DNA of 63,330 nt, the filler included, from Methanobacteriota archaeon (GTDB lineage Archaea; JACRDV01), in NCBI GenBank assembly GCA_024860865.1. It is 5 parts of 5 records of this genome, joined end to end, with 100 filler letters (N's around TTAATTAATTAA, not from the genome) between each part and the next. Parts side by side here need not be neighbours in the genome. Positions count along the whole stretch, not along the records: positions 47,179 to 63,330 come from JACRDV010000038.1; 4 more parts are not named here. One strand, written 5' to 3'. Under the pieces are notes generated by a model. That model was not told the origin of the DNA, searched no databases, and saw only the letters and a program-made list of their open reading frames with translations. Positions 17,616 through 63,330 of the stretch are shown piece by piece. The number at the start of each line of letters is the position of its first letter. The stretch's first letter is position 1. A program made the translations under genes and the position numbers.

Positions 17616-17715
17616 NNNNNNNNNNNNNNNNNNNNNNNNNNNNNNNNNNNNNNNNNNNNTTAATTAATTAANNNNNNNNNNNNNNNNNNNNNNNNNNNNN
17701 NNNNNNNNNNNNNNN
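17616..17715. other. artificial contig linker
   Basis: N run + TTAATTAATTAA + N run. Confidence 0.98.
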
Positions 17716-18168
17716 AACTTTTGCTTTCTTAACTATATCAAAAGCAGTTGCCTCTGCATCTCTCGAGTGAATAACTAGCGGTAAATTAAACTTATTTGCA
17801 AGAAAAATAAACTTTTCAAAAACTTCTTTTTGTCTGTGGCGCCCAATTGAATCCTTAACATGGTAATAATCCAACCCAGTTTCTCCTATTCCAACAATTT
17901 TTGTTTTATATTGCTCTACGAATATTAATGCTTGATCGACATCTTTTGGCTCTGAGGTAACAACTTGAGTTGGATGGTAGCCTAATGTTGCAAAAATAAA
18001 ACCAGGATATTGATCAACGAGGTCAATTGTCTTGCGGTTGCCACCTAAACTTGCACCGGAATTGATTAATGCAACTAAACCTGCTTTTTGTGCTCTTGCT
18101 ATTACTTCACTTCTATCCCTTTGAAAATTTTTAAAATCTAAATGGATATGGGTATCAATTAGTTTCAT
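17716..18168 (-). CDS. tatD: TatD-family DNase (3'-truncated)
   Basis: IDTHIHLD, GYHP, GIGETGLDY, LVIHSRDA. Confidence 0.92.
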
Positions 18169-28564: not shown

Positions 28565-28664
28565 NNNNNNNNNNNNNNNNNNNNNNNNNNNNNNNNNNNN
28601 NNNNNNNNTTAATTAATTAANNNNNNNNNNNNNNNNNNNNNNNNNNNNNNNNNNNNNNNNNNNN
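28565..28664. other. artificial contig linker
   Basis: N run + TTAATTAATTAA + N run. Confidence 0.98.
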
Positions 28665-31976: not shown

Positions 31977-32076
31977 NNNNNNNNNNNNNNNNNNNNNNNN
32001 NNNNNNNNNNNNNNNNNNNNTTAATTAATTAANNNNNNNNNNNNNNNNNNNNNNNNNNNNNNNNNNNNNNNNNNNN
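31977..32076. other. artificial contig linker
   Basis: N run + TTAATTAATTAA + N run. Confidence 0.98.
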
Positions 32077-49572: not shown

Positions 49573-51993
49573 TCAGAATAACTTTGCCTGGCGAGTGGTC
49601 GATTTAAGATCAGCTTCGGTATATCCTAAGGCGCTCATCACTCTCATGACAGCGGGCAATACTTGATTATCAATGTAATAGTTAGGATCATAATCTTCAA
49701 TTTTTGCTTCTTCAGCTGGAACAGCCCTTTTGCTCAGCATTTCAGGTCCCTTTCTTATCATGTAACCAATTATTGAGCCTACTGCTACTGGCCTTCCCTT
49801 GGTTCTTGCAATTTTTGCAGCTGTTACATGTGCTTCCTCAACTTCATATCTTGCAATCTCTCTTGTAAGTTGAGTGTAGATTATCATATCTTCAAGCATA
49901 ACATTGCGTGCAATGATATTGGCAATTGTTTGCCTGATTATACCTGCTGCCTTCTCTGAATTTCCTTCCCTTAAAATTGCCTCTAAAACCAATCTTTGTG
50001 TCTTTTTTGCAATTGGAGCCCAATCTCTCCTAACAACTTCAAGGCCGCGGGCTGTTATCCTCCCATCTTCACCAGCCAAAGCATACCGTTTTTTAGTAAC
50101 TAGTAAACCTCTTGGGTAGAATCCTTGGAACTCAAGTTGGATTATCCCTGGCAGCGATTTGTTTACTTCCTCAATAAAAGCAAATGCTTTTTCCTTAGGG
50201 TTATTTTCAACTGTGGTGAAAAGCGAATCGGTATCAGCGTAAATCGCATGAAGCCCAAATTTTTCCGCAAGATCAATAGTTTTTGTTATGTAATATCGGC
50301 CATATGCAGTGACGCTGGCAGCAGCTTCTTTGCAATACCATCTAAAGCGGGAATAGGCCAGAGTCCCATAAAATGCATTTGAGGCGACCTTAATCGCTTC
50401 TTGCTGAACATTTAACATGCGAAATTCAATTGAATCTATTGGTAAAGTTTTCATTTTCTTTTTAATTTCCATCCTGCGATTAATTAGCTCTTCTAAAATT
50501 GTCGGAAAAAATCCTCTGCGCTTAGCACAGAATTTAAAGCCAACTTCAGGCGCAAGATGGGCTTTTTCATTTGTGCAACATACACAGTTAATAGTGGAAG
50601 GATCAATATTGTGACTCACTATTACTGTAGGATACATGCTCTTAAAATCGAAAACCAGAATGTTTTTATGCAGTCCCCTTTCAGGTTCTTTCACATATGC
50701 TCCAACAATTGGGGCCTCGGACTCTCTGCGTAAAACTTCTTCTCTCCTTGGCTTGTTTGGGATTAACTCCTCAATCTCATAAGCTTTAGCCATTAACAAA
50801 TATTCAACAATTTGACCGGCTGTTACCCTTGCAACATCGAAAAGTGGTTGCCTAATCAATCTCGCAAGTTCGATTTTTTGCGGTAAAAGTTTCTCTCCAA
50901 GTTCAAGTGTTACTTCAACATCGCTTAGAGAATATTCAATTAGCTCAAGAAGTTTTTCTCCGCCTTCTTCCCAATACCTCCAGATTTCATACCCAGGTAT
51001 CTCTGGTTTTTCTCTTCCTAAAAGTTCGTGTGCAACTACATCTAAAGTATAATTAGCAAGTCTAATTGCCCTTCTAACCGAAGGGAATATATCAATATTA
51101 ATTCTACCTTTAATCTTGGCCCGAGGTGCCATCCCCCCTCTTCTGAACCTGAGTGCAGCAGGCTCTCTACCTAACAAAAATGGAATTCTATTATAGTCAA
51201 GTCTATCTCTCAGGTACGGTATGTCGAATGAATCCGAGTTAAAACCTAGCAAAATTTCTGGATCCCTCTCTTCAATGATTTTAAGAAAACGTTGGAGCAA
51301 TTCTTTTTCATTTTTCAATATTTCAACATAATCTGGTTGAGTTGGAAGAGTTTTAGCTTGTTTGCTATAAAAAGTGAGGGCCTTTTGAAAACCTTTGTTA
51401 TCAAGTAAACTAATCACAATAATTGGATCTCTTTTGGGTCTTGGCGTACCTTCTGGATTATACACTTCAAGATCGAAAGCTAGAACATCTAGTTTTGGAA
51501 ATTCTGGCTTAACAATCGGTCTTGGCGAAGAAGTCGCTTCAATAACTTGGTCAACTAATAATTTTCCTCTTTCTACTTCCTTTCCTTCAACTTGGACCCA
51601 TGTAAAGGGAATTAATCCTTTTTCAATTATGTATTTTTTCTCAAAGGGGATATCGTACTCTCGGGGTTCTTTTACCGTAGGCATTATCCTAACTTGGTCC
51701 CGCACTTCTTGAACATGTTGCGGATGAAAAGTAACTATTTTGATTACTTCAATTGGATTGCCATAGATTGTTCTGGTTACAACCTCAGTTCTCTTAACAT
51801 TTGACAAATTAGCTAATCTTTCAGCGAGCTCTTTTGCTAAAATATTTTTTGGAATTGCATAAAAATAAGGCTCGAAATTAGGATCATGGATCGCAACGAT
51901 TTTTTCATCAAAAGTTTTAAGATAAAGCCTTATAACAGCTTCTTTTTCGCTCTTTGAAAGATGGTCGATATCAAAGAATAACCCTTCAACCGT
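49573..51993 (-). CDS. polB: family B DNA polymerase, intein-free, probable ACG start
   Basis: FDLE, NSDSFD, DFKSMYP, K..SNAFYG, YADTDS, KKRY; open frame with PolB N-terminal motifs runs 62 codons past the TTG at 51807. Confidence 0.95.
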   Translation of the reverse strand, partial: TVEGLFFDIDHLSKSEKEAVIRLYLKTFDEKIVAIHDPNFEPYFYAIPKNILAKELAERLANLSNVKRTEVVTRTIYGNPIEVIKIVTFHPQHVQEVRDQVRIMPTVKEPREYDIPFEKKYIIEKGLIPFTWVQVEGKEVERGKLLVDQVIEATSSPRPIVKPEFPKLDVLAFDLEVYNPEGTPRPKRDPIIVISLLDNKGFQKALTFYSKQAKTLPTQPDYVEILKNEKELLQRFLKIIEERDPEILLGFNSDSFDIPYLRDRLDYNRIPFLLGREPAALRFRRGGMAPRAKIKGRINIDIFPSVRRAIRLANYTLDVVAHELLGREKPEIPGYEIWRYWEEGGEKLLELIEYSLSDVEVTLELGEKLLPQKIELARLIRQPLFDVARVTAGQIVEYLLMAKAYEIEELIPNKPRREEVLRRESEAPIVGAYVKEPERGLHKNILVFDFKSMYPTVIVSHNIDPSTINCVCCTNEKAHLAPEVGFKFCAKRRGFFPTILEELINRRMEIKKKMKTLPIDSIEFRMLNVQQEAIKVASNAFYGTLAYSRFRWYCKEAAASVTAYGRYYITKTIDLAEKFGLHAIYADTDSLFTTVENNPKEKAFAFIEEVNKSLPGIIQLEFQGFYPRGLLVTKKRYALAGEDGRITARGLEVVRRDWAPIAKKTQRLVLEAILREGNSEKAAGIIRQTIANIIARNVMLEDMIIYTQLTREIARYEVEEAHVTAAKIARTKGRPVAVGSIIGYMIRKGPEMLSKRAVPAEEAKIEDYDPNYYIDNQVLPAVMRVMSALGYTEADLKSTTRQAKLF

Positions 51994-52068
51994 TTAAATC
52001 CCTTCTTAGCTTTTAGTTATGCCTACGTTAGAAAAAACTTTAACTACTAGTAAATAAGTTAAACTAAT

Positions 52069-52185
52069 TGGGGTAAAATGACTACAAATATTGAATACTT
52101 GCTTCTAGTAGTAATTTTGCTTATTTTGTTATAAGTAGTCATCCCCATCGTCCGTTTTCTCTTCGGCTTTCCGGAGTTGATTTTT
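52069..52185 (+). promoter_or_regulatory. putative attenuator/translational-control leader RNA
   Basis: TGGGG+ATGACTAC complementary to GTAGTCAT+CCCCA; hairpin CTTCGG-CTTT-CCGGAG over the leuA SD; U-rich tract 52155-52163. Confidence 0.6.
52078..52134 (+). CDS. putative BCAA leader peptide MTTNIEYLLLVVILLILL
   Basis: GGGGT SD, ATG..TAA, 11 consecutive Leu/Val/Ile codons, directly upstream of leuA. Confidence 0.7.
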   Translation: MTTNIEYLLLVVILLILL

Positions 52186-53742
52186 ATGGTTTCTGAAGAG
52201 ACCTTTTATGTAAGTCAATTGGTAAAAAAATCTGTTCCGAAGGTTGGCAGGATCAAGGTATTTGATACCACGCTCAGAGATGGTGAGCAAACACCTGGCG
52301 TTTCATTAACGCCTGAAGAAAAGCTCGAAATAGCCACCCAACTGGATAAACTGGGAGTTGACATAATTGAAGCCGGTTTTCCAATTACCTCGGATGGTGA
52401 AAAAAAAGCAGTTAAATTGATCGCAAAAGCAGGGCTAAAATCTGAGATTTGCGGGCTGGCAAGAGTAACTCAAACTGACTTAGATGCTGCAATTAACTGC
52501 GATGTCCCATATGTTCATACTTTCGTTGGGACTTCTGAAATCCACATGAAAGTTAAGCTGAAAATGATGCCGGAGCAAATTTTAGAAAAAGCAGTTTGGG
52601 CCGTAGATTATGTAAAAAATCATGGATTAATTTGTGAATTCTCACCGGAGGATGCAACTAGAACTGATATGGCTTTCCTAAAGAAAATTTGTAAAGCAGT
52701 TCAAGAGGCAAAAGTTGACAAGATTAATATTCCAGATACAGTTGGGGTAATGGTTCCAACTGTTATGAAAAACTTCATTTCAGAGTTAAAAAAAGTGATA
52801 AAAGTTCCAATTAGCGTTCACTGCCACAACGACCTTGGATTAGCAGTTGCAAATTCTATAGCTGCTGTTGAAGGTGGCGCAACACAAGTTCATGCCACTA
52901 TTAATGGACTAGGTGAACGAGCTGGCAATGCAGCATTAGAAGAGGTTGTGATGGGATTAATTGCATTTTATGATGCTCAAACAAATATCAATACTAAACT
53001 AATTGCGGAAACTTCTGAATTAGTTGCTAGATTAACAGGAATTCGCCCTCAACCAAATAAAGCCATAGTTGGCGAAAATGCATTTGCACACGAAGCTGGT
53101 ATCCATGTGCATGGGGTCTTAACCTCTCCAGCTACTTATGAACCAATTACTCCTGAGATGGTTGGCCATAAAAGAAGATTGGTTTTGGGAAAACATGTAG
53201 GTTCCCATGGAGTGAAAGCTGCACTAGATGAGCTTAATATACAGACAACTCCTGAACAACTCCAAGAGATAGTCACTAGGATTAAAGCAATTGGCGATAA
53301 AGGTAAAACAGTAACTGATGCGGATTTAAGAGCAATTGCTGAAGCAATTGTTGGAGAACTTACCAAAGAAGAAAAAATAGTAACACTTGATGAACTTGCA
53401 GTAGTTACTGGAAACAGAGTAATTCCAACAGCATCTGTCAAGTTAGTTGTTGAGGGCAAAGAAAGAATAGCCTCAGCTACGGGAGTTGGACCGGTCGATG
53501 CTGCTCTCAACGCAATTCAAAAAGTATTGGAGCTCCAAGATATTAGACTTAGAGAATATAGATTAGAAGCAATAACCGGCGGATCTGATGCAATAGCTGA
53601 GGTAATGATAAAAATTGAAGATAAATTTAGAAACATAGTTTCAGCAAAAGCAGCGCGCGAAGACATAGTTATGGCATCAGTTGAAGCTATGGTTAATGCA
53701 ATTAATAGAATCCTGCTCAAACGCAGGGCAATAGCTGGTTAA
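52186..53742 (+). CDS. leuA: 2-isopropylmalate synthase
   Basis: [33 protein letters not shown], regulatory domain GVGPVDA. Confidence 0.85.
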   Translation: MVSEETFYVSQLVKKSVPKVGRIKVFDTTLRDGEQTPGVSLTPEEKLEIATQLDKLGVDIIEAGFPITSDGEKKAVKLIAKAGLKSEICGLARVTQTDLDAAINCDVPYVHTFVGTSEIHMKVKLKMMPEQILEKAVWAVDYVKNHGLICEFSPEDATRTDMAFLKKICKAVQEAKVDKINIPDTVGVMVPTVMKNFISELKKVIKVPISVHCHNDLGLAVANSIAAVEGGATQVHATINGLGERAGNAALEEVVMGLIAFYDAQTNINTKLIAETSELVARLTGIRPQPNKAIVGENAFAHEAGIHVHGVLTSPATYEPITPEMVGHKRRLVLGKHVGSHGVKAALDELNIQTTPEQLQEIVTRIKAIGDKGKTVTDADLRAIAEAIVGELTKEEKIVTLDELAVVTGNRVIPTASVKLVVEGKERIASATGVGPVDAALNAIQKVLELQDIRLREYRLEAITGGSDAIAEVMIKIEDKFRNIVSAKAAREDIVMASVEAMVNAINRILLKRRAIAG

Positions 53743-53801
53743 GTTCTTAGCAAAATTAATAAATCATTTCCAATAATTGCACAATACCCTTGGTGTAAAA
53801 A

Positions 53802-55304
53802 ATGTCAACAAAGTTGCCTACAAAAATAAGAGTACTCGATACTACGCTCAGAGATGGTGAACAAACACCTGGCGTTTCATTAACGCCTGAAGAAAAATTA
53901 AGAACTGCAAGAAGATTAGATGAGCTTGGCATAGATATAATCGAAGCAGGTTCTGCCATTACATCTGAAGGAGAACGCCAAGCTATCAAATTAATTGCAA
54001 ATGCCGGCTTAAATGCTGAAATATGCAGTTTTTCTCGCCCTATTCAGAGCGATATAGATTTAGCATTAGCTTGTGATGTTGACTCAATTCATTTAGTGGT
54101 TCCCACTTCAGATATTCATCTTCAATATAAACTTAAGAAAACTCGAGAGCAAGTTAATGAAATGGCGATTAAAGCTATTGAGTATGCTAAAGCTCATGGG
54201 TTGATCGTTGAACTTTCAGCTGAAGATGCTTCTCGGACTAATATTTCTCATTTAAAAGAATTTTATAAAGCTGGAATTGAGGCAAAGGCTGATCGTTGCT
54301 GCTTTTGTGATACAGTTGGAGTAATGACACCAGAAAATACGACTCAAATCTTCCAAGAACTTAAAAAAGAAATTAAAGTTCCAGTTGCAGCTCACTGTCA
54401 TGATGATTTTGGTTTAGCTGTAGCTAATACACTCGCTTCTCTTAGAGGTGGAGCTGAAGAATTCCATGCAACAATAAACGGAATCGGCGAGCGTGCTGGT
54501 AATGCTTCCCTCGAAGAGATAGTTATGTCTCTAATTTCGTTCTATGGAACCAAACTAAATATTAAGACCGAACTTTTAGTTGAAACCTCAAAACTTGTCG
54601 AAAGATTAACTGGCATACCAGTACCCCCGAACAAAGCAATAGTTGGGGAGCATGCATTCGCACACGAAGCTGGGATTCATACTCATGGAGTTTTAGCATA
54701 TCCCGGGACCTATGAGCCAATTACCCCTGAGATGGTTGGGCACCGTAGACGGTTCATTCTTGGAAAAGATGTCGGCTCTCATGCAATTAAAGTAATGTTA
54801 AAGGAGGTTGGTCTAGAACCAACCGAAGATGAACTAAAGCAAGTTGTAAATAGAGTTAAAGAGCTTGGTGACAAAGGGAAGAAAATTACGGATGCTGATT
54901 TGCAGTCAATTGCTGAGTCAGTTATGGGGGTTATAGGAGAAAAATTTGTTGAGTTAAATGAACTAACTGTTGTAACTGGGAATAGAGTGACCCCAACAGC
55001 ATCTGTTAGGCTAAAAATAAGGGACCAAGAATTCTTGCAGTCAGCTACGGGAGTTGGGCCGGTCGATGCTGCTCTCAATGCAATTCAAAAAGTATTGGGT
55101 GAGCTCGCAGATGTTAATTTAGATCAATATAGAGTTGAAGCAATTACTGGAGGAACTGATGCATTAGTTGAAGTTCATGTTAAGCTACGAAGGAATAATC
55201 AAATTGTAACTGCCAGAGGATCTGCTAGCGACATAGTTATGGCTAGTGTTGAGGCGATGCTAGCGGGTATTAATAGATTGCTTACAAGATATCCTAAGAA
55301 GTGA
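53802..55304 (+). CDS. cimA: (R)-citramalate synthase
   Basis: [36 protein letters not shown] typical of methanogen-type CimA. Confidence 0.85.
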
Positions 55305-56992
55305 GTTACATGGTTAAAATGACGGGTGGCAAAGCAATTTTAGAATCCTTAAAAAGGCATGGGGTAAAAGTAATATTTGGATTGCCTGGTGGAGCAATTC
55401 TCCCACTTTATGATGACATTTACAAAGATAAAGATATCAGGCATATTTTAGTTAGGCATGAGCAAGTGGCGGCGCACGCTAGTGATGGTTTTGCTCGAGC
55501 CAGTGGTAAGCCTGGAATTTGTATGGCAACTTCTGGCCCAGGAGCAACAAATCTTACCACTGGAATTGCAAATGCTTATATGGATTCAAGTCCTGTAATT
55601 GCTTTTACTGGGCAAGTTGCTAGACCATTAATTGGAAATGATGCGTTCCAAGAAACAGATGCGTGCGGTATTACCCTTCCAATCACTAAACATAATTTTA
55701 AAATAATGAAAACAAAGGAAATCCCACAAATTATTAAAATGGCTTTTAAAATCGCTACAACTGGCAGACCTGGTCCAGTTCACATTGATTTACCTAGAGA
55801 TGTTCAATCTGAGGAAACTGATTTTGACTTTGAAGCTGAACCAGAAATGCCGGGCTACAAGCCAACTATTGAAGGGCATCCTCTTCAAATAAAGAGAGCA
55901 GCCGAAATTATCAGTGAAGCTGAGCGCCCAATTGTTTTGGCTGGCGGAGGAGTGATTCATTCAAATGCATCGCCAGAATTATCAGTATTTGCTGAAATGC
56001 TTGGCTCGCCCGTAACAACAACATTTATGGGAAAGAGCTCTTTTCCAGAAAACCATCCGCTTGCCCTTGGAACAATTGGGATGCATGGTAAAAAGGCAGC
56101 TAATAAAGCAGTTACTGAGAGCGATGTTTTAATTGCTATTGGATGTAGATTTTCAGATAGATCAACTGGTAACGTCCAGTATTTTGCACAAAATGCAAAA
56201 ATTATTCACATAGATATTGACCCGGCCGAAATTGGGAAAAATATAAAAATTTTTGTTCCAATCGTTGGGGATGCGAAAAGAGTTCTAAAATCATTGATCG
56301 AACGGCTCAAAGAGATTTATAAAAAAGGTAAAACCACAGCTTGGGTTGAGAAAATTAATCAATTTAAAAAAGAGTTCCAACCAAAAATGGACTACGATGA
56401 AATACCAATTAAACCCCAGAGGGTTATGAAAGAGCTAAATTCAATAATTGATTCGAATACAATTATAACAACGGAAGTTGGGCAAAACCAAATGTGGGCA
56501 GGACATTTTCTAGAAGTCCATCATCCTAGGCAGTTTATTTCATCGGGAGGACTCGGAACAATGGGATTTGGATTCCCAGCCGCAATTGGAGCAAAGGTTG
56601 CGCGACCAGAAGCTACAGTTATTGATGTTGCTGGAGATGGTTCATTCTTAATGGTTGAACAAGATTTAGCAACTTGTGTGCTTGAAAAAATTCCAGTTAT
56701 AGTTTTAATTCTTGACAACAGACGATTAGGGATGGTCTCACAATGGCAAGAACTTTTTTACGGGGGAAGGCTTTCTGCTACTTTATTGGGCGAGTCTCCA
56801 GATTTTGTTAAACTCACGGAAGCGTATGGAGCGAAAGCTGAATATGTTACCAGACCAAATGAAATTCGGCCAGCACTAGAGAGGGCAATAAAATCAAATG
56901 AGCCATATGTGTTAGATGTTATAGTTGATCCAAAGGAGCACGTATTGCCGATGGTTCCACCAGGTGGTCGACTCGATCAAATGATTGGGTGA
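55301..56992 (+). CDS. ilvB: acetolactate synthase large subunit
   Basis: [31 protein letters not shown]. Confidence 0.96.
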
Positions 56993-57506
56993 ATTAAAAG
57001 TGGAAAGAGAGCACGTTCTGGTAGCATTGGTTGAGAATAAACCAGGTGTTATGCAAAGAATTTCTGGAATGTTTGCTAAAAGAGGGTTCAATATTGAAAC
57101 TATAACAGTTGGACCGACTGAGAGTCAAGAGCTATCTAGGATGACATTAGTTGTTAAAGGCGATGAAAGAGTTCTGGAGCAGGTTCAAAAACAACTGAAT
57201 AAACTGGTTGAAGTAATAAAAGTAAGCGATGTTGATCCAAACGAGAGCGTTATACGAGAGCTCTGCCTAATAAAGGTACATACTCCTGACCAACATGCCC
57301 GTGCTCAAGTTGTACAATATGCCCACATATTTCGGGCACATGTTGTTGATGTAAGCCCAGAATCTCTTATGATAGAGCTCACTGGTGATTCAGACAAGAT
57401 CAATGCTTTTATTGAATTGATGCGCGGATTTGGGATTAAAGAATTGGCCCGCACGGGAACAACTGCCATGCAGAGAGGGGCAAAGATAATAGAACCCAAA
57501 AAATAG
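56985..57506 (+). CDS. ilvH: acetolactate synthase regulatory subunit
   Basis: VENKPGV, KRGFNI, KQLNKL, ELARTG. Confidence 0.95.
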
Positions 57507-57616
57507 TTAAAACATCTTGTTTGATTTTGTTTAAAGCAGTTTTAGCAAAAATTTCACAATTAAATTTAAGTTTTATGAGTTATTTTATTGCTACTTCAAA
57601 TTGGGAGGGGTAAAAC

Positions 57617-58606
57617 TTGGCTAAAATATACTATGAGCAAGATGCCGACCTTGAAATTTTGAAAGAAAAAACAATTGCTGTCATTGGTTATGGTTCTCAA
57701 GGCTCTGCTCAAGCAAACAATATGAAAGACTCTGGGCTGAAAGTTATTATTGGACTTAGACCTGAGGGAGCTTCAGCTGAAAGAGCCAAACAAGATGGAT
57801 TCGAAGTTTTCCCGATATCTGAAGCAGCCGCCAAGGCTGACATTATTCATGTTTTAATTCCAGATGAGGTACAAGCAGATGTTTATAATTCTGAAATTGC
57901 TCAGCAATTAAAGCCTGGCAAAGCTCTTGGTTTTTCTCACGGTTTCAATATTAGATTTAAACAAATTGTCCCTCCAAACTTTGTCGACATAATAATGATT
58001 GCCCCAAAAGGCCCGGGCTTAATTGTTAGAAAATTATACAAAGAAGGATTTGGCGTTCCGGCATTAATTGCAGTTGAACAAGATTACACAGGGAAAGCAA
58101 AGCAGATAGCGCTTGGGATGGCAAAAGCAATTGGTTCAACTAAAGTTGGTGTAATTGAAACAACTTTTGCAGAAGAATGTGAAACAGATCTATTTGGAGA
58201 ACAAGTTGACCTTTGTGGTGGAGTGACTGAGCTAATTAAAGCAAGCTTTGAGACTTTAGTTGAAGCTGGTTATCAACATGAAATTGCTTATTTCGAAACC
58301 CTCCATGAACTAAAATTGATCGTTGATCTAATTTACTCACGAGGGTTGTATGGGATGTGGTCGGCAGTTTCTAACACAGCAAAGTATGGTGGATTAACTA
58401 GAGGAAAAAAAATCGTCAGCAAAGCATCTCGAAGGTCAATGAAGAAGATACTTGAGTACGTTAAAAGCGGCAAGTTCGCTGAAGAGTGGATGAAAGAAAA
58501 TAAAAAAGGTCGACCTAAACTTAATGCATTGTTAGAGCAGGAGAAAGGGCATTTAATTGAAAAAGTTGGAAAAGAAATCAGAAAAATGGCCGGTATAGAG
58601 AAATAA
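57617..58606 (+). CDS. ilvC: ketol-acid reductoisomerase
   Basis: [27 protein letters not shown]. Confidence 0.97.
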
Positions 58607-58776
58607 TCTAATCCCCAAATGCTAATTCTCACTTTTTTGTTATTTTTTCTTCTTAGTTTTTTGAGCCTGCTGCACGGCTTTGGCATTAATTTTATATTAA
58701 TTTCATATTAAAAATTAAAAATTAATATGGTTTGTTGGATAATTATGATGTATTTTATAAATTTTTATACTGATAC

Positions 58777-59655
58777 ATGCCAAACTATAAGAAAATTAAG
58801 ATTTGGGAACTGCCCAGTTTTAGGTTTAGCATATATGTTTTCATTTGCGCAGGGATGCTCAGTCTTATTTGGGCTAATTTTTATCAATCTGAAATAAATG
58901 CGCTGAAAAGCGATAAGGAGCATGTAATTTCCGGAGCAGAACAACCAAATAATGCGAATGTACTGAATAGCACGCCAGATAAATTAGGGTTTGAGAAGGA
59001 AGAACCTACAAAAAAAACGATATTTGAGACAAAAAATACGAGTGTTCAATCAAACTCACAAATGACAGTAACCCAAGCAAATTTGATTGAAACTAACACC
59101 AATTCAACTAAAGTTATCAAACTTGATGTATGGAAATACTATTATGATACACGACCAAATGAAATGACAAAATATCTTTTTGCTAATGATTTAGCAGACT
59201 CTTGGAACAAATCGGTTTATGATCTAGCTCAAAAATTAAGAAATTATACTAGTATTAATCAAACTCTATCTAATTACTATTACTATGTTCGCTATAAAAT
59301 CTATTATCCAAAATTCTATTGGCAAGGCCATCTTATCCAAGATGGAATCGATATTAACACTAATTTAGAACAATCCGAACTAAATGATGTTTTATATAAA
59401 ACATATCCAGCAAGTTTAACTTTACAAAAGGGTTATGGACTTTGTGATGAAAAAGCGGTTCTCTTTGTTGCTTTAGCCAGAGCTAATGGTATGCCAGCTC
59501 GCATAGCTGCTGGAGCCACAGATTATCCAAATCTTTTCCATTGGTGGGTTGAAGTTTGGAATGGAAATTGCTGGCAAGAAATTGATCCCACTTTTTGGTA
59601 TCATTTTAATGAAATCAAATCAAACTATCATAAACTTAAGATAATTGAATTATAA
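58777..59655 (+). CDS. membrane-anchored transglutaminase-like protein
   Basis: GLCDEKA, HWWVEVW, IDPT (Cys-His-Asp triad); N-terminal TM. Confidence 0.8.
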   Translation: MPNYKKIKIWELPSFRFSIYVFICAGMLSLIWANFYQSEINALKSDKEHVISGAEQPNNANVLNSTPDKLGFEKEEPTKKTIFETKNTSVQSNSQMTVTQANLIETNTNSTKVIKLDVWKYYYDTRPNEMTKYLFANDLADSWNKSVYDLAQKLRNYTSINQTLSNYYYYVRYKIYYPKFYWQGHLIQDGIDINTNLEQSELNDVLYKTYPASLTLQKGYGLCDEKAVLFVALARANGMPARIAAGATDYPNLFHWWVEVWNGNCWQEIDPTFWYHFNEIKSNYHKLKIIEL

Positions 59656-59699
59656 TTCATAATTCAGTCTAAAGGTGAATTAAAGTTAAAGAAGAGCCT

Positions 59700-60938
59700 T
59701 TAAGCTCCAAACTTCTTAGCCCTCCCCATTAAATCGAGCAAAATTGGCATAAAATCTGAGCCGCGAATTCGATTAAGCCCACCTAAGACTACTGTATTTT
59801 CATTAAAGGCTTGAACTCCATCTTTCCTGACTTCAGGGCCACAAATTGTAATCGGAACTGGATCGGCTGTGTGATCCTTAACTGAAATTGGAGTTGTATG
59901 ATCGCTTAAAATTACAACATATGTCTCTTCTAAATTAATTTGATCCAAAATTTTGCCAATCATTGAATCAATTCGTTCAATAATTTTAATCTTAGCCTCA
60001 AGCATGCCTTCGTGGCTTACCTCATCTGAGCCTTCTACATGGATTATGGCAAAGTCATGATTTTTTAGCGCCTCAACTGCGGCTTGGCCTTTTGCATCCA
60101 CGTCAGTATCAATATATCCAGTTGCACCCGGTACTTCAATTACATCAAATCCCATTAATTTAAAAACTCCTTTAATTAAACCACATCCAGCTATGCACGC
60201 ACCTGTTAGACCATATTTTTTAGAAAAGGATTCCATATTTTTTGAAAGTTTTCCTCCCCCTCTAATCAAAATTACATTAGCCGGAAGCTTTCCCTCTTGT
60301 ATCCGTGCTTGGTTAATTGGATGAGCTTTTAGCATTTCATGTGATTTTTTTAAAAATTCGTTTAAAATCCGGGCAGTTTTATATGCTGTCTTAGTTCTAT
60401 TTATTGGACGAATTTCTTTAATCGGTTCTCCAGTTCGTGGATAACAATCAGCAACTTTTGGAGAAAGACCTCTTCCCCTCAAAACAAGGGCTGCTCGATA
60501 GTCTGCAGAAACTTTGAAGATCAATTGCACTCCCTTAGCAGATTCAAGTTGAAGTTTGTTCAATGCTTGAGCGAGCTCTTCGTTCCCTTCCCTAATAAAG
60601 CCTGCAGTTCGATCAAGTAGGTTAAAATTGTTATCTGCAGTCGCAAAGTTACATCGAAATGCCACGTCATTCTGCCTGAGCTCAATTCCGGCGCCAATTG
60701 CTTCAATAGGCCCCCTTCCAGTATAGACTTCGAATGGATCATAGCCAAAAATTGAAAGATGAGCTATATCAGAGCCGGCTCTAATTCCGGGAGCCACTGG
60801 GTCCATTAACCCAGAAATTCCCATTTGAGCGAGCTTATTCATATTTGGAATATTCGCAACCTCTAATGGAGTCTTCCCATTCAATTCAGGAATAGGTCGG
60901 TCAGCAATTCCATCTCCAACTATTACTAAAGCTTTCAT
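59700..60938 (-). CDS. apgM: archaeal 2,3-BPG-independent phosphoglycerate mutase
   Basis: DGIADRP, TPLE.A, GSDIAH, YTGRGP.EA, SDH.TP. Confidence 0.92.
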   Translation of the reverse strand: MKALVIVGDGIADRPIPELNGKTPLEVANIPNMNKLAQMGISGLMDPVAPGIRAGSDIAHLSIFGYDPFEVYTGRGPIEAIGAGIELRQNDVAFRCNFATADNNFNLLDRTAGFIREGNEELAQALNKLQLESAKGVQLIFKVSADYRAALVLRGRGLSPKVADCYPRTGEPIKEIRPINRTKTAYKTARILNEFLKKSHEMLKAHPINQARIQEGKLPANVILIRGGGKLSKNMESFSKKYGLTGACIAGCGLIKGVFKLMGFDVIEVPGATGYIDTDVDAKGQAAVEALKNHDFAIIHVEGSDEVSHEGMLEAKIKIIERIDSMIGKILDQINLEETYVVILSDHTTPISVKDHTADPVPITICGPEVRKDGVQAFNENTVVLGGLNRIRGSDFMPILLDLMGRAKKFGA

Positions 60939-61026
60939 CAGTATTCCCCTAAAGTGCTATTGCTATTGGTACTAGGATTAAACCTATCTTATGTTCTTTA
61001 GTGTGAAATTAATAAAGGCCTTTTTA

Positions 61027-61689
61027 TTAAACTCCTTTAAAAAAATTCTTAAGTGAAATACAAGCGGCTGCTCTAGCCCCTTCTTCCGCCTTCTTAATTG
61101 TTGAAGCTGAACCAATTATAACCGCATCGTTTTCTTCAAGCTTAAATTCCTTAAAAATCTGTTTAACAACATTCGGGAAACTTGTCTTTATGTTAGAAGG
61201 ATCATAAGGCAAAAGTAATTTATTGTTTTTAAAAACCAATGTAGTTGCTCCCTCAGCTCCAACCATAATTGCTGCATCCCGCTGTTCAAGGCCCATTTTT
61301 ATCTTATTAGCAATTTTTCTCACCTGGATGGCTATATCATACTTTCCAACAGTCAAATTTCCAGCATCAATAAGCTTTGGCCGAGAAATTTTCTGCTCTA
61401 AAATTTTCAATGATCTCTTTCCCTTATTTGTAAGTATGGTACCTCGTGGCTGGATTTTAACTACCCCATCGTCCTCTAGCCTTGCTAATAAGGTTCTTAC
61501 TGACCCTTCACCTAAAGATAAAAAGTTTCCTAGCTTTTGTCTGCTAATCGGTGTTTTAGCATCAGCTAAAATTTCAATCGTTTTGATGACATGATGCGCC
61601 GAAAAACCGGGAATTGGAGCCTGTTTTTTTGGTTTGCTCAGCTTTTCAATCAATTTATTAACCATCATAATCCTTTCTGAATCATTCAT
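61027..61689 (-). CDS. wHTH protein of DUF4443-like family
   Basis: SR..L...LSLGEGSVRT, GLEQRDAAI..GA.GA. Confidence 0.7.
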   Translation of the reverse strand: MNDSERIMMVNKLIEKLSKPKKQAPIPGFSAHHVIKTIEILADAKTPISRQKLGNFLSLGEGSVRTLLARLEDDGVVKIQPRGTILTNKGKRSLKILEQKISRPKLIDAGNLTVGKYDIAIQVRKIANKIKMGLEQRDAAIMVGAEGATTLVFKNNKLLLPYDPSNIKTSFPNVVKQIFKEFKLEENDAVIIGSASTIKKAEEGARAAACISLKNFFKGV

Positions 61690-61708
61690 ATGCTAAAATT
61701 TAAATTTT

Positions 61709-62233
61709 GTGAGTGAATATTTGGTTCACGTGAGAAAAAGAACAATTATTATTATAGCTTTAGCAGCTGTTATTGTAAGTGTTGTAATTTATTTCTATTT
61801 AGAAAAATCCATATTAGCTCCTAAAACGGCCCCTACTACTACAGCTCCAATTTTTCAACCAGTTACTGTGCCACTTGGTCCAGTAGCAGAATCTACTATT
61901 GAAGAATGGGTAAACAAAAATCCATTTTTCTTTAAGGGGTTAGAGAAAGGAGCAATTATTGAACTTCATATTGCGAAAAGTGCAGGTGAAGTTTTCGTTC
62001 TTGAGATGGTTGATAATACTGTAAGTGTTAGAGCTGGTACAACTACAAATAAGGATATTGAGCTATGGATTGACAGAGATGGTTTTACCCTACTTTTGGG
62101 TTCAACTGATGCGAGAGCGGCTGCAAAGCAACTCTATCAAACCGGATCAATTACTTACAAAAAAATTGCAAGCATATTAACTCTCTACAGAAAAGGTTAT
62201 TTCGGCTGGGCCAAAAACAATGGGTTTGTTTAA
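61709..62233 (+). CDS. hypothetical membrane-anchored protein
   Basis: N-terminal TM, Thr/Pro linker; family not recognised. Confidence 0.6.
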   Translation: MSEYLVHVRKRTIIIIALAAVIVSVVIYFYLEKSILAPKTAPTTTAPIFQPVTVPLGPVAESTIEEWVNKNPFFFKGLEKGAIIELHIAKSAGEVFVLEMVDNTVSVRAGTTTNKDIELWIDRDGFTLLLGSTDARAAAKQLYQTGSITYKKIASILTLYRKGYFGWAKNNGFV

Positions 62234-62271
62234 AACTTGCTTTCAACAGCTCTGTGAAATAAAAAGAAAAA

Positions 62272-62487
62272 TTAAGCTCTGCAAACTGCTTTAGCAGCTA
62301 GCTTAACATCTTCACCAGTAACAGTTTTTCTCCCAGCATGTTTTGCCATGTTAGATGCTTCACGAGCAATTGCAGTTGTGCAACCTTCTAAAACTTCAAT
62401 TAAGGTTTTAACAGCATCAGCAGAAACTCTTTCACAACCAGCTTTACGCATTAACCTATCCAAAGGCGCGGCAGGTAGCTCGGCCAT
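62272..62487 (-). CDS. archaeal histone (HMf-like)
   Basis: MAELPAAPLDRLMRKAG.ERVS..A...HAGRKTV...D; GGAGG SD. Confidence 0.95.
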   Translation of the reverse strand: MAELPAAPLDRLMRKAGCERVSADAVKTLIEVLEGCTTAIAREASNMAKHAGRKTVTGEDVKLAAKAVCRA

Positions 62488-62659
62488 TAAATCGCCTCCC
62501 AAGAGAGAATTCCAACTTCTCTTCATTTTTTAACTCCTTATATACTTTTTCCGTTTTTCGGTGCGGAACTAAAAACAAACAGGCAAAATGTACTAAATCA
62601 TAAATCACACAAATAATTTATGAAAATGCATTATTTGGGCGAAATATCTGGTTTTTAAT

Positions 62660-63301
62660 ATGAAAGCAATCGTTGGCATTGACCTTGCAGGCAATCCGAA
62701 GAATCCAACTGGCTTTGCTGCTATTAAACCTAGCCTCACTGTCGAAGTTTGTTTAGTTTTTAATAATGAGGATATAATAAAAAAAGTTGAAAGGACCGAT
62801 CCAAGTTTAGTCGCTATCGATGCCCCATTAACTTTGCCAAAAGGAAGGTGTTGTTTTAAACTAAGTTGCAATTGCAAAACTCGTGGAGCAAATTTAAGAG
62901 TTGCAGACCGAGAGATGATTAAACTTGGCTATAGAATTTTCCCTCCAGCTTTTGGCGGAATGAGAACTTTAACTATGCGCGGAATAGAGCTATCAAAAAT
63001 TTTACATACAAAAAATTTTAAGGTAATTGAAGTCCATCCTAGATCTTCTAAACTTGCACTAAAATTACCAATTGAGAACTCGCAAAAGCTTCAAAATAAA
63101 TTGATAAAACTGGGACTAAAAGGAGAAATTCTGAAGCGAAAATTAAGCGATGATGAATTGGATGCGATAATTGCCGCTCTAACCGGATATCTCAACCTTA
63201 AAAATCAAACTGAAAAGATTGGAGAACCAGATGAGGGGCAAATAATCATTCCTAAAACAAATGCAAAGCTTAAGTATGCCAAATTTTCCAAATTATTTTG
63301 A
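62660..63301 (+). CDS. DUF429-family predicted RNase H-like nuclease
   Basis: VGIDLAG, AIDAPL, IEVHP, DELDA..AA. Confidence 0.85.
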   Translation: MKAIVGIDLAGNPKNPTGFAAIKPSLTVEVCLVFNNEDIIKKVERTDPSLVAIDAPLTLPKGRCCFKLSCNCKTRGANLRVADREMIKLGYRIFPPAFGGMRTLTMRGIELSKILHTKNFKVIEVHPRSSKLALKLPIENSQKLQNKLIKLGLKGEILKRKLSDDELDAIIAALTGYLNLKNQTEKIGEPDEGQIIIPKTNAKLKYAKFSKLF

Positions 63302-63330
63302 TATTTTTCCTCCGAAAATAGTCCTCATTA

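Follow-up and report, generated by a model that had tools for sequence, protein, structure and literature searches.

Attenuation by leader peptides, a classical mechanism of bacteria, requires that ribosomes stay close behind the RNA polymerase, and in the multivalent ilv/leu leader attenuators of bacteria (ilvL, ivbL, and leuL type) the position of the ribosome selects the RNA structure. Here, we describe, in an uncultured archaeon, a short open reading frame (ORF) that is probably a leader peptide sensing branched-chain amino acids (BCAAs). It lies at positions 52078 to 52134, ahead of the leuA-cimA-ilvBNC operon, in a stretch of 63,330 nucleotides (nt), filler included, from Methanobacteriota archaeon JACRDV01 (GenBank assembly GCA_024860865.1), referred to below as the window; it joins five parts of five records, and positions 47179 to 63330 come from JACRDV010000038.1. 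As in the bacterial ilv/leu leaders, the mixture of Leu, Ile, and Val codons suits an operon that serves all three amino acids. Unlike these attenuators, the window locus showed neither a G+C-rich terminator hairpin with a U run, nor an antiterminator alternative, nor an Rfam match, and its host is an archaeon, with different termination signals.

In the mycobacterial polycysteine leaderless short ORF Ms5788A, the sensing codons stand at the 3' end in a tract that pairs with the Shine-Dalgarno (SD) sequence, nearly the whole leader forms one long duplex, and control is exerted on the translation of the next gene, with no terminator (bioRxiv 10.1101/834739). Ms5788A is closely matched by the ilvB leaders of Bathyarchaeia presented below, whose codon run can pair with the SD sequence. 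The window leader differs from it, since its run pairs poorly with the leuA SD (-6.1 kcal/mol) and its stem joins the leader start to bases after the stop. The actinobacterial LEU element upstream of leuA has a base stem that involves the SD sequence and no obvious terminator; it is a conserved pseudoknot in which mutations of the Leu codons reportedly had no regulatory effect, and the authors favor a protein-binding site (PMC1262725). The window shows no such pseudoknot. A search of the full-text literature, which left subscription journals mostly outside so that an earlier report is possible, returned no description of amino acid leader peptides or attenuation in archaea. Comparable tiny ORFs in two further archaeal groups suggest that archaea, too, use the ribosome-stalling control known from bacteria.

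A short ORF with a terminal Leu/Ile/Val run and an enclosing stem

The elements of the candidate leader are the following.

52039..52044, plus strand: TTTAAC, candidate TATA box of a transcript that would include the leader ORF; an A run precedes it (52032-37), and it lies 39 nt before the ATG at 52078
52069..52085, plus strand: 5' arm of stem P1, covering the SD sequence and AUG of the leader; present in both the minimum-free-energy and the centroid folds
52070..52080, plus strand: ribosome-binding site and start codon of the leader ORF, GGGGTAAAATG
52078..52134, plus strand: leader ORF, 18 codons plus TAA (52132-34), encoding MTTNIEYLLLVVILLILL, from direct reading
52099..52131, plus strand: run of 11 consecutive Leu/Ile/Val codons (residues 8-18), the proposed sensing codons
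52135..52147, plus strand: 3' arm of stem P1, GTAGTCATCCCCA, beginning at the first base past the stop codon

Leu (7), Ile (3), and Val (2) make up 12 of the 18 codons of MTTNIEYLLLVVILLILL; in the called genes of the window, these residues amount to 26%. A six-frame translation of all 63,330 bases contains a single Leu/Ile/Val run of at least 8, that of the leader ORF itself, and five of at least 7. The ORF also has the translation signals of a gene. Its 11-mer GGGGTAAAATG recurs identically at the start of a 425-amino-acid (aa) gene at 41677 on the minus strand, and the pattern GG[GT]GTAAA occurs eight times in the window: four times 0 to 3 nt before the starts of ORFs of 203 to 500 aa (the cimA-like gene, ilvC, 41677 minus, and 1794 minus), once at the leader ORF, and three times inside genes. 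Of the 58 called genes of the window, 25 end in TAA, the most frequent stop, which supports the leader stop as real. The ORF is in frame with leuA, and a hydrophobic coding look persists past its TAA into 52135-52185, where T occupies the second position in 12 of the 17 codons between the TAA and the leuA ATG.

The start of the ORF is complementary to the bases that follow its stop. TGGGG (52069-73) and ATGACTAC (52078-85) pair with GTAGTCAT (52135-42) and CCCCA (52143-47), giving 13 bp with a 4-nt bulge. This P1 duplex, at -19.0 kcal/mol, was equaled by none of 2,000 dinucleotide shuffles and by 9 of 8,927 window positions with identical geometry. The fold of the 85-nt leader module has a z score of -2.79 (1 of 200 shuffles as stable); that of the whole 161-nt region is not significant (z -1.20; 23 of 200).

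These features had first been pointed out in a reading made from the window's letters without database searches (the sequence-only reading). Direct reading confirms the ORF it placed at 52078-52134, with 7 Leu, 3 Ile, and 2 Val codons of which 11 are consecutive, and the distance of 51 nt that it gave from the stop to the leuA ATG (52186). The SD sequence it assigned to the ORF proves to belong to a type used by real genes in the window, and the shuffles bear out the complementarity it noticed between the leader SD and start and the bases after the stop.

Candidate leader ORFs upstream of ilvB in Bathyarchaeia

In Bathyarchaeia, the usual gene order is cimA, then ilvB-ilvN-ilvC-leuC-leuD-leuB-leuA. 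Among 100 loci sampled around leuA, 83 ilvB upstream regions were usable; the element we call V1 is present in 34 of them, V2 in 32, and neither in 17. Eight of these 17 (8/83 overall) contain a short ORF whose last codons form a Leu/Ile/Val run, with the stop immediately after it, and this leader family occurs only where the V1/V2 element is missing. A model scan of 151 genomes (5 hits) added a ninth member; the family loci are L169, L198, L211, L223, L225, L242, and L274, together with the diverged L196 and L163. The ORFs span 20 to 32 codons (e.g., MSGVQLRTDYLPKLLRNLRLPVVLIVIVVILV at L211 and MSSMKLKKQLVTIQLVILLVVVVLLV at L225), the run is 8 to 12 long in seven of the eight and 5 in the other, and the stop lies 66 to 68 nt before ilvB in six of the eight.

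The runs are almost exclusively L, I, and V; the residues F, A, G, and M, which membrane helices would be expected to contain, are missing. Across the family, T is kept at the second codon base while the first and third vary, and alignment gaps within the ORF measure 3 or 9 nt, which together argue for selection on the encoded residues and not on a DNA motif. An 11-bp stem joins the start region to distal codons of the ORF or run, and in two of seven sequences both bases of one of its pairs are changed; a hairpin follows the stop, and the Leu/Ile/Val codons can pair with the ilvB SD (-5.6 to -16.6 kcal/mol). A conserved CCTTATAGG box stands 38 to 40 nt before the leader ATG (counted by eye), and TTTAAC of the window stands at 39 nt.

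The sequence-only reading had proposed a comparison with the background rate of BCAA-run ORFs in other intergenic regions. For the Bathyarchaeia loci L151-L270, counting other spacers of at least 60 nt and leaving out L223 (no called neighbor gene), a Leu/Ile/Val run of at least 8 is found in 6 of 75 ilvB spacers, 0 of 24 leuA spacers, 0 of 35 cimA spacers, and 1 of 482 others; 6/75 against 1/482 is not a clean probability because the loci are related. The single control spacer, at L158, holds a 31-codon ORF with a 15-long Leu/Ile/Val run upstream of a 76-aa ORF (17684-17914) and does not adjoin a recognized BCAA gene.

The window leader resembles the ilvB family in having a Leu/Ile/Val run of at least 8 directly before the stop, a stem that sequesters the leader start site, a TATA-like box at a similar distance, and a place just ahead of the first BCAA gene. 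It differs in length (18 against 20 to 32 codons), in the spacer (51 against 66 to 68 nt), and in the gene that follows (leuA against ilvB).

The V1/V2 element is itself strongly conserved, about 160 to 190 nt upstream of ilvB (L151-L170 and L191-L270; e.g., L155, L160, and L153), and at V1 loci a TATA-like box precedes it. It had no Rfam match in the three Bathyarchaeia loci scanned, a quick alifold run showed no covariation, and the window contains no match to it with up to 3 mismatches. It may represent a small RNA gene or a novel cis-regulatory RNA.

Candidate leader ORFs upstream of leuA in Methanomassiliicoccales

In two Methanomassiliicoccales loci of an initial scan, five consecutive Leu codons stand right before leuA. 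A LeuA match was present in 97 of 101 genomes of the order, and of the 30 loci examined from these, 28 have an ORF of 12 to 14 codons ahead of leuA. In 24 of the 30, the ORF ends 31 to 39 nt before leuA with at least three consecutive Leu/Ile among its last seven residues, as in MICNAFIGLLLLLE and MIFTDSADLLLLE. The 30 loci are L276 and L279-L307, and such an ORF lies also at L011 (2791-2853); the terminal Leu/Ile codons number 3 to 5, and the Leu and Ile codons themselves vary among loci. The TATA box lies upstream of the leader ORF. Complementary bases bracket the ORF, one set immediately preceding it and the other immediately preceding the leuA SD; the pairs are CCGTC/GACGG (16 loci), CCGTTC/GAACGG (6 loci), CCGTTC/GACGG (3 loci), and others (2 loci). 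As an enclosing stem this pairing is weak, with at most 2 of 200 shuffles as stable in 4 of 27 loci. The plan of the window leader, a short ORF with a terminal sensing run and a start-closing stem ahead of the first BCAA gene, is common to both families.

Proposed mechanism and its output

Transcription through the ORF, its translation, stalling, and an effect on leuA are what we infer from the design of the leader. The translated peptide would signal to the leuA-cimA-ilvBNC operon how well the cell is supplied with charged tRNAs for Leu, Ile, and Val. The transcript would begin about 10 nt upstream of the leader ORF, and a ribosome would load on GGGGTAAAATG while transcription is still going on. 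When Leu, Ile, and Val are plentiful, the ribosome would cross the 11 codons and leave at the TAA, and P1 would close over the leader start, keeping the leader region folded. When one of the amino acids is scarce, the ribosome would stall in what would otherwise be the P1 loop, P1 would be blocked, and the expression of leuA and the downstream genes would rise.

Two further features bear on how such a stall might act.

52155..52164, plus strand: T4 and pyrimidine tract TTTTCTCTTC, a weak candidate termination site that starts 7 nt past the end of P1
52161..52176, plus strand: predicted hairpin P2 (CTTCGG 52161-66 / CCGGAG 52171-76), holding the leuA SD GGAG at 52173-76

Control of the leuA translation start is our first choice for the output, a tentative one held with low confidence, because two conserved archaeal families point to it. 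Some other output, for example RNA stability, seems rather doubtful, and early termination at the T/pyrimidine tract after P1 is unlikely. P1 is not a canonical terminator, as it ends (52147) 7 nt before the weak tract. Folds of the region contained no hairpin directly followed by a U run between the leader and leuA, and folds with a ribosome at five positions or with either P1 arm blocked gave no alternative pairing that alters the downstream structure and no antiterminator. The Rfam scan of the window region gave only four weak matches (E 3.7 to 8.4), all to unrelated families and far under their gathering scores. At the leuA start, the P2 module does not stand out from shuffled sequences (z -1.66; 14 of 200 as stable), its CTTCGG pairs elsewhere once more downstream sequence is folded, and the unpaired probability of the leuA SD in free RNA is 0.13 to 0.24, with an SD partner that depends on the folded length. 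The attenuator proposed in the sequence-only reading thus stands in part. The short sensing ORF is supported by its gene-type ribosome-binding site and by like ORFs in two archaeal groups, and for the proposed output step the folds show no ribosome-dependent switch; the hairpin said to bury the leuA SD has its bases in place and holds GGAG, with a module no better than shuffles, and the U-rich tract is present without making P1 a canonical terminator.

On balance, we lean slightly toward a wider claim: that short ORFs with Leu/Ile/Val or Leu runs control BCAA operons in at least three archaeal lineages (the window organism; a Bathyarchaeia subclade, at ilvB; and Methanomassiliicoccales, at leuA), that they share a long start-closing stem so that only a cotranscriptionally loaded ribosome reads the signal, and that in Bathyarchaeia they are an alternative to the V1/V2 element. 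If so, the sensing of tRNA charging through coupling would extend to a second domain of life, the interplay of archaeal translation starts and RNA structure would gain an experimental handle, and the combination of a short ORF, a cognate codon run, and an enclosing stem would serve as a simple sequence marker for further controls of this kind in archaea that have not been cultured. Cultured members of the Methanomassiliicoccales family make a direct test possible.

Evidence against a leader and alternative explanations

It is important to consider what weighs against a sensing leader in the window. No release of the leuA start was seen in the folds: with a ribosome blocked at five positions of the ORF, the leuA SD has an unpaired probability of 0.12 to 0.13 and the AUG of 0.15 to 0.35, so that the two stay about as paired as in the free RNA and the folds do not support the switch of leuA translation by stalling that had been proposed from the sequence. 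Longer folding windows gave no clean switch around the leuA start, and the Leu/Ile/Val run pairs weakly with the leuA start region (-6.1 kcal/mol); no thermodynamic switch model for the window leader emerged from these three kinds of fold. A covariance model of the ilvB family (ORF end, spacer, and SD) misses 52078-52188, giving six unrelated hits with filters off and E up to 10, and common descent of the window leader and the ilvB family is therefore not supported. Neither the genome-contig scans, nor a class scan of 401 genomes, nor a metagenome scan yielded a relative above 69% LeuA identity. A strain about 98.5% identical, seen on contigs of four sequencing runs, has the TAA and the entire leader ORF unchanged; in the spacer it differs by 3 nt inserted behind 51990, the loss of 1 nt at 52025, and C52153T, with none in 52026-52152, which would be compatible with constraint. 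None of the seven sequencing runs listed for the stretch is recorded as RNA. Loss of the TAA in relatives had been named beforehand as evidence against a leader, and this single, very close strain keeps it; it is uninformative on constraint because too few changes are expected at such closeness. Rare coincidences are also to be expected from an initial scan over a very large number of windows. Finally, TTATAA at 52129-34 overlaps the leader stop, 57 nt before leuA, and resembles the GCTTATAAC promoter block of another Bathyarchaeia order; if leuA is transcribed from this box, the ORF lies outside the leuA mRNA.

This last point is the core of the alternative that survives best, although we consider it quite unlikely: the leuA promoter would be TTATAA, with transcription starting near 52158, and the ORF would be AT-rich promoter DNA that happens to read as Leu/Ile codons. 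In the G001 order, 29 loci beyond L084 have a conserved block that ends in GCTTATAAC and lies roughly 44 nt upstream of leuA, the SD standing about 10 nt before the start, and the mini-ORF MQSMLPILLIINVVG of L084 is kept in only the three closest genomes, decaying elsewhere to unrelated short ORFs. TTGCTT..TTATAA in the window is similarly placed, and a TATA-like box is seen by eye near the ATG of several first genes of the window. On the other side, the most frequent Leu codon and the most frequent stop, placed in succession, already give TTA TAA. The promoter explanation leaves T at the second position of all 11 run codons, the gene-type ribosome-binding site, and stem P1 unexplained, and it must take the codon run, the ribosome-binding site, and P1 as three coincidences. 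It likewise offers no account of why ORFs with C-terminal Leu/Ile/Val runs recur before BCAA genes in two other archaeal groups, in which the TATA box precedes the ORF and none is conserved in the spacer.

At L017, from another Bathyarchaeia order, a 15-codon Ile/Leu/Val-rich ORF lies 21 nt before leuA; it was rejected as a relative of the leader, as the ORF is not conserved in its order and the DNA block ending in GCTTATAAC is. At L084 and L119-L147 (G001 order), the promoter block lies about 44 to 75 nt before leuA and has a GTAAC..GTTGC inverted repeat beside GCTTATAAC; this looks like an operator and TATA box of a leuA-leuC-leuD-leuB operon.

It is improbable that the ORF encodes a small hydrophobic peptide, or is what remains of a membrane-protein N terminus, with no relation to amino acid control. 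Such a peptide would account for the good ribosome-binding site, the hydrophobic tail, and the continuation of the frame into leuA with T second in 12 of 17 intervening codons, and the non-BCAA spacer of L158 has a 15-long Leu/Ile/Val run. Eleven hydrophobic residues are, however, too short for a membrane span; the run consists of L, I, and V and is free of F, A, G, M, and W; it ends at the C terminus, as in the other archaeal ilvB and leuA leaders; and such ORFs are enriched before BCAA genes (6/75 ilvB against 1/482 other spacers).

Least probable of all is control at the DNA level, in which the P1 arms and repeated ACTAC/GTAGT words would bind a regulator in the divergent polB-leuA promoter and the ORF would be incidental: direct and inverted repeats of CTAGTAGTAA-type words (52043-53, 52105-14, and 52129-39) and the conserved inverted repeat beside the leuA TATA in another Bathyarchaeia order speak for it, but the arms, 49 nt apart, bracket the ORF exactly from SD to stop as an RNA stem would, a comparable RNA stem that shows a compensatory change is present in the ilvB leader family, and the codon run is left unexplained.

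Operon context and neighboring genes

The genes behind the leader read as follows.

52186..53742, plus strand: leuA-like gene (2-isopropylmalate synthase family; NF002085, 730.9 bits), first in the operon
53802..58606, plus strand: second leuA/cimA-like gene, then ilvB, ilvN, and ilvC

The order leuA-cimA-ilvB-ilvH(-ilvC) assigned from the sequence alone is thereby borne out as leuA-like, leuA/cimA-like, ilvB, ilvN, and ilvC. The ATG at 52186 is supported as the leuA start because the N-terminal extension MVSEETFYVS resembles MSDEEFYMS of L017. A Pfam scan of 20 window proteins found no further amino acid operon.

The best LeuA relatives share 63 to 69% identity and have a different gene order, and all the named ones are Bathyarchaeia, which places the organism, an archaeon with few sampled relatives, near that class. 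A genome-contig scan with the single LeuA protein gave no close relative; the scan with a LeuA alignment gave 80 loci from archaea and bacteria, 4 of them Bathyarchaeia, and the metagenome scan gave 3 loci at 50 to 53% identity. The sequence immediately upstream of leuA in the best relatives was uninformative as a comparison, as leuA there follows leuB.

Two 44-base runs of N, 12 bases apart, occur at four places in the window (17616-17715, 28565-28664, 31977-32076, and 47079-47178). Upstream of leuA and divergent from it lies a family B DNA polymerase gene, whose frame on the minus strand runs to about 51993; no ATG, GTG, or TTG occurs close to the 5' end of this frame, and the first such codon is at 51807. 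The near-identical strain has an in-frame 3-nt insertion exactly at the 5' end of this frame (51807-51996 region), and the start codon of the polymerase gene may be noncanonical.

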